Shown: piece by piece, positions 15,395-22,157 of the stretch | Numbering within the stretch: the stretch's first letter is position 1 | How the letters are laid out: each line of letters starts with the position of its first letter | Origin: Rickettsiales bacterium | Lineage (GTDB): Bacteria; Pseudomonadota; Alphaproteobacteria; Rs-D84 | NCBI GenBank assembly: GCA_031279085.1 | Contig: JAITJD010000009.1 | Location: 97,232-161,231 of the forward strand | Reading direction: 5' to 3' | DNA length: 64,000 nt | The notes under the pieces: model-generated | Database searches by the model: none | What the model saw: only the letters and a program-made list of their open reading frames with translations | Told to the model about the DNA's origin: nothing | Position numbers and translations under genes: made by a program

Positions 15395-15729
15395 CCACAG
15401 TAATTAATCTTTGGGCGACTGGCGATTATTGACTATAAAAAATGGTTCCACGCTAAAAACCAACCCGCATCGGTATTGCCCTTGCGGGTCGTTTTTTGTT
15501 ACGGTCAGATTTCTATGTGCACAATATGTCTTTTTTCTCTCGTTTGTCCTTTATAAAGGACAAAGTTATTTTCAGACTTTGTTCACATCTAAATAATATA
15601 CGGACAATCGAGAATCGATAAAAAATAGTTCCGCTGAAAAAACAAAACCCGTATCAGTATTGCCCTTGTGGGTCGTTTTTTATCGGTGTCAAAATTCTCA
15701 TGTCCGGTATATGTCTGTTTTTCTCATCT
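15395..15729 (-). repeat. family-B cassette-array repeat block (two R/hairpin units plus the palindrome at 15544-15563)
   Basis: CCACAGTAATTAATCTTTGGGCGACTGGCGATTATTGACTATAAAAAAT..., hairpins AACCCGCATCGG..GCGGGT, R motifs at 15517 and 15693, and palindrome TTGTCCTTTATAAAGGACAA. Confidence 0.85.
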
Positions 15730-16290
15730 TTATTTCAACACTTCCCATAAATCCTCAAATGTCTCGCTTGTATCAGAAAAACAAAAATGTCCCATATCTG
15801 TGTAGTTATGCTGGATTATGCTAGGATATTCCTGCATAATACGTTCAGTGCTAACTTTTATGGAGTCCATATCGTCCGCTGAGAAAAATAAATGAACTTC
15901 TTTAACCCTATCCAACGCATTTTTATTAAGCGTGAATTCTAAAAATGGAGCTTCGAGCTTCTGTGGGTCAAGCCAAGGCGCGACCAAGAGCAGCTTATCT
16001 AGCGAGACGTTCGGATTTTCATGAATCCATTTAAGAAAAAAACCGCAACCTGCGCTGTGTCCAACCACGACCGAAAGGTTTTTGTGGTCTAACTGTTCAA
16101 AAGTCTTTTTCCATTCTTGATAAACAGGTTTGTAAGGTGTGGGCATTTCAAGACACTGGCATAATAGTCCTGCGCGCAAGAATCTTTGTTGTCACCACGG
16201 TAGCCAATGCGCGTTTGACGGCGACGGAAAATTCATTTCAAAGTATTCTTCTCTATCACAAACGCCATGCAATATCACTGCTGTTTTCAT
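15730..16290 (-). pseudogene. YdeN/RBBP9-type alpha/beta serine hydrolase with an in-frame TGA at codon 33
   Basis: AGGTG SD upstream of ATG 16290. MKTAVILHGV...NAHWLPW-TGA-QQRFL... continues in frame into the listed ORF (VVGHSAGCGFFLKW nucleophile elbow). The stop lies at 16192-16194. Confidence 0.6.
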
Positions 16291-16446
16291 TTTTACACCT
16301 TTCAATTACACGCAAATGATAGATGAAAACATGTCAGAAATAAAGATGAAAAATAAATTGTCCTTTATAAAGGACAATTTATTACTTTTATATTTTGCGA
16401 TATGCATTTTAATTCTATGTCCGCAATATGTCTTTTTTCTCTGTTT
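16291..16446 (-). repeat. family-B repeat block (palindrome 16358-16377 plus R motif 16417-16443)
   Basis: AAATTGTCCTTTATAAAGGACAATTT followed by TCTATGTCCGCAATATGTCTTTTTTCTC, which abuts the SDR stop codon. Confidence 0.8.
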
Positions 16447-17154
16447 TTACAGGCGGCCACCGTCGGCAATAATCACGGTTCCATTTACATAACTTGCGTC
16501 ATCGCTAGCCAAGAATTTTATAATTTTTGCCATTTCTGATGGCTGGGAAATTCGTTTCAAACAAACTTTTTCTGCTTCTTCTGCCAAATAATCGACAGAC
16601 AAGTCCTTGTTCATATCAGTATTTACCCAACCTGGCGCAATAGCGTTCACATTTACATACGGTGAAAATTCAATCGCAAGACTTTTAGTCAGTGATATTA
16701 TTGCGGCCTTACTGGCATTATAGTCTATTGCATAAGGCGAAAAGTCGTTTATTCCGCTAGTGCTTGAAACATTCACGATTTTGCCAAATTTGTTTTTAAC
16801 CATAATTTCTCCGACATATTTTGACATTGCAAACATACCAATCAAGTTTACATCCAAAGTGCGTCGCCAATCTTCAACAGAGCGTTCGTAGAATTCTTTA
16901 TCTATCGCCATACCTGCATTATTTACAAGCACATCTATCTTGCCAAATTCCGCAATAACCGCATCAACCGCATTTTTTACTGCTTTTTCATCAGAAATAT
17001 CGACAATAATTTCTTTCGCAACTTTTAGGTCCGTTTTTACAAACGGATTGCTATGCAAAATTATAACCTTTGCGCCCAATGCAATAAATTCCTGCGCGGT
17101 CGCATATCCAATGCCGCGACTGCCGCCAGTTACTAAAACAACTTTATCTTTCAT
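16447..17154 (-). CDS. short-chain dehydrogenase/reductase (FabG-like)
   Basis: TGGSRGIG cofactor motif, NNAG, and catalytic Y..ASK(AA). GAGG SD upstream of ATG 17154. Confidence 0.85.
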   Translation of the reverse strand: MKDKVVLVTGGSRGIGYATAQEFIALGAKVIILHSNPFVKTDLKVAKEIIVDISDEKAVKNAVDAVIAEFGKIDVLVNNAGMAIDKEFYERSVEDWRRTLDVNLIGMFAMSKYVGEIMVKNKFGKIVNVSSTSGINDFSPYAIDYNASKAAIISLTKSLAIEFSPYVNVNAIAPGWVNTDMNKDLSVDYLAEEAEKVCLKRISQPSEMAKIIKFLASDDASYVNGTVIIADGGRL

Positions 17155-17214
17155 ATTGTTACCTCTTCACTTTTCAAAAGTGTAAAGGATTTTGTTGAAA
17201 AAATGAAGTATATT

Positions 17215-17479
17215 TTATTGTTTGTCCTTTATAAAGGACAATATTTTTGCGTCTTTCAAACTTGAACTGTCTTTTCGTACCGCTCCACAGTAATTAATCT
17301 TTGGGCGACTGGCGATTATTGACTATAAAAAATAGTTCCGCGCAAAAAACAAAACCCGCAAGCGCAAAGGCTTTGCGGGTTTGTTTGTCATTTGCGCCAA
17401 ATGTCCATGTCCGCTATATGTCTTTTTTCTCACTTGTCCTTTATAAAGGACAATATTTTTGTGTCTTTCAAACTTGAAC
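17215..17479 (-). repeat. family-B repeat block: a complete 'empty' unit between the palindromes at 17222 and 17434
   Basis: Palindrome, Seg2, CCACAGTAATTAATC..., hairpin AAAACCCGCAAGCGCAAAGGCTTTGCGGGTTT, R motif 17404-17433, then palindrome again. Confidence 0.85.
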
Positions 17480-17586
17480 GAGGGTATGCAGCCGGATTCA
17501 ATCGCCGCGCAGACGGGCGAATTCAACGAGATGTTGTCCGCGCTGTACAATGCCGACAATTATCATTCTGAAACAACGATTGTGAT

Positions 17587-17949
17587 ATGAACAACCCCGC
17601 TGAAAATGTTTTAGAAAAACTGAATCCAAACCCGATAAGGCAGATGCTGTCCGAAATAAGCGCTGTCGCGGGTTCTGATAAGATTCTGCCGGACGAGTTT
17701 CCGCAAAAGGGGTCTGTTTTGCGGGAATTTGCGGACACTGCAAAGGTTCCGGGAATTTTAAAACGAAATTTCAATGAAATGCTGGATATGGCAGGCAAAA
17801 TTAAACAAACTGGCAATAGCCCCGTGGCACTGGATGAATTTTACCATCGAAAAGCCCAATACGAAGCTGCTCAATTAGGTCTGCTGCCTGCTGCATTTGG
17901 ACAGATTTTAGGACTGGGAAAGAAGCAATTGATATACCAAAATATTTAA
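17587..17949 (+). CDS. hypothetical protein, possibly with a serum-amyloid-A-like segment; may be frameshifted or disrupted at its 3' end
   Basis: LDEFYHRKAQYEAAQLG resembles the SAA core DKYFHARGNYDAAKRG from memory. A short upstream ORF overlaps through ATGA. Confidence 0.35.
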   Translation: MNNPAENVLEKLNPNPIRQMLSEISAVAGSDKILPDEFPQKGSVLREFADTAKVPGILKRNFNEMLDMAGKIKQTGNSPVALDEFYHRKAQYEAAQLGLLPAAFGQILGLGKKQLIYQNI

Positions 17950-17997
17950 TTAAAGGTCAAAATATTAAAACAATCTTACGAGATGGTAAAAAAGATG

Positions 17998-20634: not shown

Positions 20635-20820
20635 ATGCTAAATGCCGACTGTAAATATTAAATCTTTTCAGGGAATACGCACGATAACCCCGGAGGGGGT
20701 TGAAGTCGCCGGCCGCCAATCAGCCGCTGATTCCAGCAATATTTATCTGCGCCCTAATCAGAACTCCGCCGGATTCGGACTTTATTCGCTGCCCAAGCTG
20801 TCAGAACTGGCGGTATTCCC

Positions 20821-21134
20821 AAAGGACAATATTTTTGTGTCTTTCAAACTTGAACTGTCTTTTCGTACTGCTTATTTGGCTTGTCCTTTATAAAGGACAT
20901 TGAATTATTTGTGTATGTCGGCGGTTTGGTATCGCGTCAATGCCTGCCGTGTCAGCCCATCTTGCCCCTTAAACAGCCATCCTGGCAACAAACGCCGGAA
21001 CTATAAAAAATGGTTTCACGCGAAAAACAAAACCCGCAGGCGCAAATACTTTGCGGGTTGTTTGTCATTTGCGCCAAATTTCTATGTCCGGTATATGTCG
21101 TTTTTCTCACTTGTCCTTTATAAAGGACAAATAT
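20821..21134 (-). repeat. family-B repeat block (half-palindrome 20821, palindromes 20881 [19/20] and 21111, R motif 21083)
   Basis: Same modules as 17215-17479. Includes the hairpin AAAACCCGCAGGCGCAAATACTTTGCGGGTT. Confidence 0.85.
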
Positions 21135-21440
21135 TTACCTAACTTCTGCTGTTAACTTTATATCAAACAGATTCAACAAGCGCAAAATGGTGACAAACTC
21201 CGGATTGCCGTTTGGCGATAACATATTATAAAATCCGCTTTTGGAAAGCCCAAGCATTTCAAAAGCACTTGAAATTCTTTGATTTGTTTTCGTCAATTCT
21301 CGCAGTATTGTTTTGATTTTTTCTATATCCAAATTATCCAGCGCGGCGGTTAATTCTGCGACAAGCGCCGTATCGATTTCTTTGTTTTTTATAAAATTTT
21401 CCCGTTCTATTTTTGGTTTGGATAAAATTGAAAATCTCAT
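21135..21440 (-). CDS. HigA-family addiction-module antidote protein (HTH), with no cognate toxin gene adjacent
   Basis: ...TAALDNLDIEKIKTILRELTK...LGLSKSGFYNMLSPNGNPEFVTILRLLNLFDIKLTAE matches the 'addiction module antidote' family pattern. GAGGG SD. Confidence 0.7.
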   Translation of the reverse strand: MRFSILSKPKIERENFIKNKEIDTALVAELTAALDNLDIEKIKTILRELTKTNQRISSAFEMLGLSKSGFYNMLSPNGNPEFVTILRLLNLFDIKLTAEVR

Positions 21441-21453
21441 ACTGCCCTCTATA

Positions 21454-21578
21454 TCTGATTTGCGATTTTATTATACCCTTGTCCTTTATAAAGGACAAGC
21501 AATAAATCAAGATTTGTAATAATTTGTAATAAACAGACACAAAATTATTTTGTTTATCTAGGTAGTGCGTCTGATTTC
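21454..21578 (-). repeat. 125-bp direct repeat copy 1 (promoter module TTGTCC-N17-TATAAT built on the palindrome)
   Basis: Differs at about 4 positions from 22033-22157. On the - strand the palindrome's left half acts as a -35 element, exactly 17 nt before TATAAT. Confidence 0.8.
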
Positions 21579-22013
21579 ATCGCATGCTGCCCTCTATCTG
21601 CTGATATCATTTGCTGCAATCTTTCGCGTCCAAGTGTTTTTTCCAGTTGTTTAAGAGCCCTCTTGACATTCGGGTCGGATTGGTTTACAATATTGTCAGT
21701 GGTTTGCAAAGACGATTGTTTTTGCAAACCACTAGTCATTTTTTTATCACCAACGGTGCTTTGACGAGCAGAAAGATGATTATCTAGTCGACTGCCAAAC
21801 GCTTGCCCGACAAGCGGTTCGGATGATGGATCGCGGCGACCATCCAAAGCACCTTTTTTTATATCCTGTTTTTACAAATACATTATTGCCGTCGGCGATT
21901 TTTCCGATAATACTGACATTCGCATTTTTGCCAGAATTATCAAACATTGTTTGTAATGTTGGGTATTGTCCGCGCGAAATTTGGCTATTTCTTCCGTGCA
22001 ATGCCGACTGCAA
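21554..22013 (-). pseudogene. hypothetical ~153-codon gene split by a frameshift in an A7 run
   Basis: ORFs 21780-22013 and 21554-21847 join as ...GYKKGALDGRRDPSS... if one A of the run (T7 at 21854-21860 on the + strand) is removed. Only a TTG start is available. Confidence 0.4.
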
Positions 22014-22032
22014 AACATCTGCAATATCATTT

Positions 22033-22157
22033 TCTGATTTGCGATTTTATTATAACCTTGTCCTTTATAAAGGACAAGCAATAAATCAAGATTTGTAATA
22101 ATTTGTAATAAACAGACACAAAATTATTTTGTTTATGTAGCTAGTGCGTCTGATTTC
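22033..22157 (-). repeat. 125-bp direct repeat copy 2 (promoter module)
   Basis: See 21454-21578. Contains the palindrome at 22058-22077. Confidence 0.8.

Follow-up and report, generated by a model that had tools for sequence, protein, structure and literature searches.

A 64-kb stretch of a Rickettsiales contig (the window, by which we mean all of the DNA that was analysed) contains an array of small gene units at positions 15395-22157 that is punctuated by a 20-bp palindrome, TTGTCCTTTATAAAGGACAA, hereafter called P. We propose that P is the cognate binding site of a 101-residue helix-turn-helix (HTH) protein encoded inside the array (21135..21440, - strand). Judging from the way in which palindrome and protein vary together, this pairing is very probably correct. 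We are moderately confident of the fuller reading, according to which the array would be a set of moron-like promoter/operator-gene-terminator units controlled by this one small repressor. If it holds, an uncultured lineage of termite-gut Alphaproteobacteria carries acquired single-gene units under a tiny repressor, and almost exact copies of the 20-bp site of this repressor stand at the head or the tail of each unit.

The palindrome and its candidate protein

In the window, P occurs in ten perfect copies and one copy that matches at 19 of 20 positions, where 0.01 would be expected by chance. The initial annotation of this DNA had listed the same copies, and their coordinates were reproduced. 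The copies are confined to two regions, 15.5-22.1 kb and 31.1-31.5 kb, the latter directly after the rRNA operon.

The HTH protein matches PF21716 (dnstrm_HI1420, a HigA-type family) with 27.1 bits at a cut-off of 27.0, phrog_4268 ("transcriptional repressor") with E = 5.7e-9, and TIGR02684 with E = 7.9e-7, which is below the cut-off of that model. By these profile matches the protein carries the HTH domain of the HigA/Xre-type repressor family. Single-sequence and profile searches returned 39-42 homologues, all at least 58% identical, and no weaker ones down to E = 1e-5. Because the homologues are few and the named ones all come from termite-gut metagenome-assembled genomes (MAGs), the HTH clade and its palindrome appear to belong to one narrow lineage. 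In about 1 Mb of P-bearing loci, this is the sole protein family tightly linked to P (median distance 23 nt). The HTH module occupies a different chromosomal place in each species, and two copies of the gene adjoin phage capsid or terminase genes. Both P and the HTH gene were absent from the viral contigs of IMG/VR, where the other palindrome classes described below gave only single, probably chance, matches. In the literature we found no paper containing the P sequence or placing the HI1420 family in such a role.

The initial annotation had described the protein as a HigA-like antitoxin that is mere cargo of the array. A type II toxin-antitoxin pair of the HI1419/HI1420 type would require a cognate toxin upstream. 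In 13 loci the upstream neighbours differ every time and none matches a toxin family. The bracketing of the gene by palindromes and their co-variation with the protein clade point instead to a P-binding protein.

In every contig that carries a homologue of the HTH gene (13 independent contigs), a 20-bp palindrome stands on both sides of this gene. Behind the upstream copy, TATAAT or a close variant begins after a gap of 3 nt and the ATG comes about 35-55 nt further on; the second copy lies 3-35 nt past the stop codon. The sequence of the palindrome differs by HTH clade, in at least five classes. Class A (TTGTCC-TTTATAAA-GGACAA) accompanies proteins that are 80-100% identical to the one in the window, class B (TTGTCC-AATATATT-GGACAA) the homologues P0024, P0027 and P0036, class C (TTGTCC-ACTATAGT-GGACAA) P0017, class D (TTGTCT-AATATATT-AGACAA) P0029, and class E (TTGTCT-ACTATAGT-AGACAA, also written TTGTCT-(A/G)CTATAGT-AGACA) P0023. 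A cognate repressor-operator pair would be expected to co-vary in this way while keeping its register to a -10 box, and we read the two elements as such a pair. Binding by the HTH protein would by itself account for the invariance of P.

In the alignment of the HTH proteins, the differences concentrate in the predicted recognition helix, LS-[KR][SP][GS]-[FY]Y-[NK][MI]-L, and the palindrome classes follow residues 67-72 of this helix. For four further proteins we predicted the class from the protein sequence before looking at the DNA. Three predictions came true (P0022, class E; P0016, class C; P0025, class E). The fourth failed: P0011 has class A and not the centre expected from residue 73. 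A simple two-residue recognition code was dropped after this case, and a post hoc rule on residues 67, 68 and 72 accommodates all twelve cases. Because of the P0011 failure, we take the match between protein and palindrome to hold at the level of clades, with no residue-level code settled. The classes nevertheless provide a natural series on how an HTH protein shifts its DNA preference. Asymmetric "hybrid" palindromes such as TTGTCCATTATAAAGGACAA occur at positions 1117, 11200 and 11335 of locus L071 and in several metagenome loci. Alongside them stands a further symmetric class, TTGTCCATTATAATGGACAA, and two HTH paralogues that belong to other classes are encoded on the L071 contig as well.

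The position of P relative to promoter elements suggests how the protein may act. Upstream of the HTH gene (promoter/operator 21470..21498, - strand), a perfect P box starting at 21479 provides the hexamer TTGTCC as the -35 element, together with the spacer, of a predicted sigma-70-type promoter; TATAAT follows 3 nt past P and the ATG 38 nt past P. A second module of this kind (22049..22077, - strand; perfect P box starting at 22058) heads a frameshifted open reading frame (ORF) and is part of a 125-bp repeat, in which 22033-22157 is 98% identical to 21454-21578. A promoter scan of the - strand returned TTGTCC-17-TATAAT at 21498 and 22077 and TTGTCC-18-TAAAAT at 17241. Across all unique P flanks, -10-like hexamers peak exactly 3 nt past P: 20 flanks match in at least five of six positions and 12 have an exact TATAAT, which occurs 0-1 times at any other offset. 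Most of the flanks with TATAAT at the 3-nt offset precede an HTH gene. By its sequence, this is the geometry of a palindromic operator that overlaps its own promoter, repeated in 13 contigs and co-varying with the protein. Because TATAAT starts 3 nt past P and P covers the -35 element and the spacer, a bound HTH dimer would be expected to block RNA polymerase and thereby repress its own gene.

Anatomy of the array

In the MAG Hm464_bin176, lpxD and the orthologue of a 471-aa gene of the window lie 32 nt apart. Because these two genes adjoin there, the whole of 15395-22157 is an insertion between two syntenic core genes, which in the window are lpxD (14299..15342, - strand) and the 471-aa gene (22315..23730, - strand). 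The array of 6.8 kb is AT-rich, with 36.9% GC compared to 47.2% for the window.

At the lpxD end the array closes with a perfect P box (15544..15563) that is preceded by a variant of the R motif described below and by a terminator hairpin. The next perfect box (16358..16377) lies 67 nt upstream of the start of a gene of the Ser_hydrolase family (15730..16290, - strand), and another (17222..17241) lies 67 nt upstream of the start of an SDR oxidoreductase gene (16447..17154, - strand), where it forms the promoter-like sequence TTGTCC-18 nt-TAAAAT on the - strand. The nearest relatives of the SDR outside the lineage are clostridial FabG-like proteins (53-59% identity). Both genes had been annotated as complete, but the hydrolase gene is a pseudogene with an in-frame TGA, at the position of which the intact orthologue in locus L111, itself preceded by P, has Leu. 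The perfect box at 17434..17453 belongs to a gene-less unit with the order P-R'-terminator on the - strand, and that at 21111..21130 lies 4 nt past the stop codon of the HTH gene and is followed by R' and a terminator on the same strand. The frameshifted ORF (21554..22030, - strand) has no family match. Downstream of the rRNA operon, three perfect boxes (31155, 31306 and 31490; 31155..31509) form gene-less units of the opposite polarity.

Contrary to the claim of the initial annotation, not everything between palindromes is on the - strand. A low-GC insert of 3.3 kb (17480..20820) carries ORFs on the + strand, which are cut off at both ends. It lies between 35-bp repeats composed of half of P and its right flank, and the half-site noticed at 20821 by the initial annotation is indeed one end of this exact direct repeat (17445-17479 = 20821-20855). 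At its right junction the insert stops a single nucleotide away from the centre of a P box; the box with 19 of 20 matches is at 20881..20900. The ORF 20254-20634 within the insert matches the phage families phrog_9114 and phrog_2687. An inverted repeat of about 28 bp, GCTCTGTCC(C)TACCCATTGTGTCTTTTT, at 17998-18025 and 19050-19077 borders a segment of 1 kb with a very low GC content, which looks like a separate small insertion within the larger one. A 198-aa ORF inside this segment (18045-18641) has 28.8% GC.

A second recurrent element, R (ATGTCCGNNATATGTC), contains a pair of direct TGTC-type repeats that are spaced by about 10 nt, as at 15700..15715 (+ strand). With up to two mismatches it occurs eight times in the window, where 0.31 occurrences are expected. 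Further + strand copies are at 15515 (a variant), 16417, 17407 and 21084, and an R-like variant is at 22153-22175. The five + strand copies, which were known from the initial annotation, precede P or a gene end. The copies at 31186, 31338 and 31524 are new; they are on the - strand beside the 31-kb palindromes, where the composite element is inverted. The hairpin that had been noticed ahead of R turned out to be part of a long terminator-type stem (17340..17397, T-run on the - strand) with a fold z-score of -4.9. Modules homologous to this one are located within 15432-15491, 15615-15674 and 21000-21059 and close to 31355-31420. The described geometry of the junctions was also borne out: at "empty" junctions R directly abuts P, the stop codons of the cargo genes are 3-5 nt from R, and the start codons of the hydrolase and SDR genes share their distance to P.

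Read on the cargo strand, the motif (R') consists of two direct repeats, GACAT-N5/6-GACAT-AG, and most cargo genes, as well as the neighbouring core gene, have it at their 3' end. Between species both repeats change jointly: GACAT..GACAT, TACAT..TACAT or CTACAT..CTACAT (window 22153-22175; L044, L049, L054). This joint change and the position behind a core gene suggest a second binding factor. The idea that R' is an extra half-site for the HTH protein was dropped, since Cu122 MAGs have CTACAT..CTACAT while P stays class A. Because R' changes between species while P does not, it is probably read by some factor other than the HTH protein. Coding by the R'-terminator stretch was ruled out, because the length of the T-run differs between copies and shifts the frame. 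An Rfam search of the array gave nothing beyond weak chance matches.

P has both a promoter context and a 3'-end context. In a larger set of loci it often lies 0-20 nt past a stop codon. The order of elements there is not fixed, being R'-P-terminator in the species of the QMCE contigs versus P-R'-terminator in the window. As RNA, P folds at -8.1 kcal/mol and often has T-rich sequence behind it, which makes a role as terminator or roadblock at 3' ends plausible.

The modular, cassette-like anatomy recognised by the initial annotation is real and recurs in other species. Among 34 unique P-to-P intervals, about 20 contain exactly one gene of 80-295 aa and the remainder are gene-less. In the single-gene intervals P lies 18-98 nt before the start codon and the next P often 2-20 nt past the stop codon. 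The cargo consists of varied small proteins, mostly enzymes: the HTH protein itself, chorismate mutase, a Zeta_toxin-like kinase, GDSL lipase, Nmad3, histidine phosphatase, a member of the inositol monophosphatase family, SpoU methylase, a DapB-like reductase, SDR and Ser_hydrolase. A second species has a similar array with other cargo just after its rRNA operon, and the hydrolase unit recurs with its own P at another locus in another species (L111), adjoining grpE. Four contigs contain gene-less runs of 4-12 palindromes with 64-75 bp spacing directly beside the HTH gene (L075 10315-11063; L212 775-1071; L099 1115-1400; L197 5872-6632), with spacers of about 50 nt that fall into a few repeated families.

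Taken as a whole, the array may be a string of separately switched and insulated units that resemble phage morons. The same P that would act as operator of the HTH gene also heads the SDR, hydrolase and frameshifted units, and together with R' and an intrinsic terminator it also closes units, where it could serve as an insulator or roadblock. All units would then be under the one small repressor. New units would arrive by general or illegitimate recombination between repeated modules instead of by a dedicated P-specific recombinase.

Alternatives and related systems

Several observations weigh against control of the array by the HTH protein. Binding and repression are deduced from sequence. 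The Pfam match sits right at its cut-off, the structure model is of low confidence (predicted local distance difference test score, 61) and its matches to Xre-type folds are not significant; the failed prediction for P0011 belongs here as well. With 166 perfect and 18 one-mismatch copies, counted in loci that were selected for carrying a perfect copy and hence biased, P is more uniform than the operators of most regulons. Furthermore, P is not restricted to 5' positions: its intergenic contexts in the loci from alphaproteobacterial MAGs are 11 convergent, 20 tandem and 7 divergent, and a larger set that includes some loci of other phyla gives a similar picture (33:58:25). The SDR orthologue of the QMCE contigs lacks an upstream P and shows the order stop-R'-P-terminator downstream. 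Finally, the 8-kb pieces fetched from Hm464_bin176, a MAG with 20 P copies, contain no HTH gene.

The initial annotation had interpreted the array as the product of site-specific cassette capture. In its most explicit form, P would be the crossover site of a recombinase encoded elsewhere or of host XerCD, circular one-gene cassettes would join by recombination of P with P, and the HTH protein would be a regulator or accessory factor only. This model would explain why n+1 P boxes enclose n genes, one in each interval, why the array is inserted between syntenic core genes, why arrays occupy different loci with different cargo in each species, and why P is nearly invariant. It would also suit the junction that breaks at the centre of P (20821) and locus L068, in which a perfect 26-bp inverted repeat (AATGACCAATGACTAATGATTAATGA short tandem repeats; 9902-9927 / 11262-11287) encloses the order P-HTH-P-CM-P-178aa-P. 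We nevertheless consider it unlikely. As the annotation had stated, the window contains no integrase or transposase; this holds for every ORF with a Pfam match, none of which is to a recombinase, while several ORFs have no match at all. Neither did a recombinase recur near P in the P-bearing loci, and none is listed among the genes of related arrays. As a perfectly symmetric site, P gives no direction to an exchange, isolated half-sites are rare, and P does not mark the ends of the duplicated modules, which extend through it (the 125-bp promoter module and the 35-bp repeat flanking the 3.3-kb insert). Among the fetched loci, a set without close strain pairs, we found no strain-level pair differing by presence or absence of a unit; an apparent indel between L074 and L075 is a scaffold gap. 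Moreover, the invariance of P is already accounted for by protein binding. With no recombinase, no attC or dif features and module boundaries off P, site-specific capture is unsupported. A dedicated P recombinase is possible but unsupported, and ordinary or illegitimate recombination between repeated modules would be a simpler way to build the mosaic. Were recombination at P the true explanation after all, the array would represent a novel way of capturing genes. In L111, some 2 kb away from a P box and beside efp, there is a tyrosine-integrase-like ORF of 397 aa (2676-3869); we did not take it as linked to P, and it probably belongs to an unrelated island.

A hybrid of the two ideas, which we regard as quite improbable, holds that P and the HTH protein form a gene-accretion system: the protein would mark or guide P, and single-gene units would be added there either by an enzyme that is unlinked or has escaped recognition or through recombination by the host at the palindrome. 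In that event the HTH/palindrome classes would define separate, mutually exclusive cassette pools, in an integron-like system without an integron integrase.

Two further explanations dispense with promoter control as the principal function. P might be an intergenic repeat of the REP (repetitive extragenic palindromic) or NIME (Neisseria intergenic mosaic element) kind, structural or selfish, acting as hairpin, terminator or recombination hotspot, with secondary use as an operator by the HTH protein. The intergenic location of all copies in a near-random mix of orientations, their frequent position shortly past stop codons, the composite flanks particular to each species, the gene-less arrays with repeated spacers and the folding of P as RNA with T-rich sequence behind all fit this idea. 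A passive repeat, however, would neither shift with the HTH clade nor stand at a constant distance from TATAAT in front of every HTH gene. Since there are also tens and not hundreds of copies per genome, and no transposase of the RAYT (REP-associated tyrosine transposase) kind is associated with them, we judge this explanation very unlikely. Alternatively, the palindrome runs could be centromere-like or silencing nucleation sites, with the HTH protein coating sites about seven helical turns apart and promoter control arising as a side effect. The gene-less runs beside the HTH gene in L075, L212, L099 and L197, the AT-rich, foreign-looking composition of the arrays and the presence of some HTH copies in prophage regions would agree with such a function, which is highly improbable in our view: no partition ATPase is nearby, the sites, 65-66 and 71-75 bp apart, lack strict phasing, and the window itself has no such dense array.

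HigA, MqsA and the controller C proteins of restriction-modification systems are autoregulated small HTH proteins with palindromic operators. The present system shares with them the small HTH protein, the palindromic operator over its own promoter and extra operators at other promoters. It differs in that no toxin is adjacent, and in that the operator is repeated tens of times almost unvaried and is also found at gene 3' ends and in gene-less arrays. KorA and KorB of IncP plasmids and omega of pSM19035 act as global repressors on plasmid backbones, where their invariant operators recur. Here, too, one small autoregulated DNA-binding protein would have many identical sites at several promoters, some of them far from promoters. 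Unlike these plasmid systems, the present one is chromosomal, occurs in termite-gut Alphaproteobacteria, employs an unrelated protein family and has sites that bracket single accessory genes. By this analogy, in mechanism it most resembles a small autoregulated repressor of the Xre/HigA type with a repeated invariant operator, as in some plasmid global regulons.

In layout, the closest parallels appear to be the morons of phages and the intergenic mosaic elements of Neisseria. Like a moron, each unit is a self-contained promoter-gene-terminator module added between genes, and some HTH copies and one ORF of the array are phage-related; unlike morons, the units are chromosomal, all have one operator in common, and no intact prophage surrounds the array of the window. 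The Neisseria dRS3 repeat is a 20-bp sequence, ATTCCC-N8-GGGAAT, that flanks RS blocks and is the target of a Piv/IS110-type phage integrase. It shares with P the length of 20 bp, the 6-bp inverted arms around an 8-bp centre, the flanking of repeated blocks of 50-150 bp and the occurrence in intergenic mosaic arrays by variable genes. P has another sequence and occurs in another taxon, its centre is fixed within each class, it has a candidate cognate protein, and we saw neither an IS110/Piv gene nor phage integration at the site. The function of mosaic intergenic repeats of the NIME or BIME (bacterial interspersed mosaic element) kind has long been unclear, and, as far as we can tell, the HTH protein is the first named candidate protein for a repeat of this kind.

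The array lacks the defining features of an integron, a Xer/dif module, a REP-RAYT pair and a toxin-antitoxin pair. It resembles an integron in having one small gene per unit, mostly in the same orientation, varied accessory enzymes and a chromosomal insertion. No IntI gene with attI and Pc is beside it, however, and P is a perfect, invariant palindrome without the GTTRRRY core and the imperfect hairpin of attC. The P-P intervals with a gene have one ORF each, as in cassettes; the units carry -35/-10-like elements and terminators of their own, and one P in L110 is divergent. As the initial annotation had suggested, we folded the R-to-palindrome region as single-stranded DNA. R stayed unpaired in the folds of either strand, pairing neither with P nor with other sequence, and this rules out an attC-like structure made of R and P. 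A pdif/XerCD site has 28 bp, with two Xer-binding arms of 11 bp on either side of a 6-bp spacer. As a site for XerCD, P is unconvincing by reading: it is 20 bp long, perfectly symmetric and without likeness to the dif consensus. With REP/REPIN-RAYT systems, the array has in common a single-copy gene flanked by a matched repeat, a repeat class that co-varies with the clade of this gene (here in five classes) and intergenic copies. Instead of an HUH (Y1) transposase, the flanked gene encodes a 101-aa HTH protein without catalytic domain, copies number tens and not hundreds, and the palindrome is perfect and AT-centred.

Occurrence in other genomes

An exact scan for the 20-mer in one genome per species found multi-copy P only in termite-gut MAGs labelled Alphaproteobacteria or Rickettsiales. 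In Hm464_bin176 the 20 copies are spread over 11 contigs; Nt197P3bin125 contains 9, and several other MAGs have 1-5. A metagenome scan returned at least 120 loci, many of them from termite-gut samples. Because the core genes of the window share 67-75% DNA identity with the P-bearing termite-gut MAGs, the window belongs to the same broad lineage. Single copies of the 20-mer in Flavobacteriaceae are unrelated, being part of the dnaA coding sequence, and single copies in other phyla were likewise set aside.

The flanks of P vary by species, and the conserved object is the 20-mer itself. R and the terminator accompany it in the window; in Hm464 the flanks are hairpins rich in GC, and in Nt197 they are variable arms of repeats. 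In Nt197P3bin125, inverted arms built from short tandem repeats, which change between copies, surround a central P, and the three-gene array of this MAG is enclosed by perfect inverted repeats of 26 bp. The MAG to which L068 belongs has "empty" P boxes between inverted arms similar to those of L068, again with a different sequence for each copy.

P boxes or arrays adjoin grpE in three species (L040, L068, L111), on different sides of the gene. In several of the Patescibacteria loci (L021, L025, L034, L035, L067, L015, L009, L032), the 20-mer is beside a DnaA-box-like sequence, TGTGGATAAC, and several Patescibacteria genomes have further ATGTCCTTTATA...GTAAAGGACAT repeats near it; in this group the 20-mer may be a conserved motif of the origin region. 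Among the housekeeping genes of the window, 3804-6131 encodes a VirD4/TraG-type coupling protein of type IV secretion.

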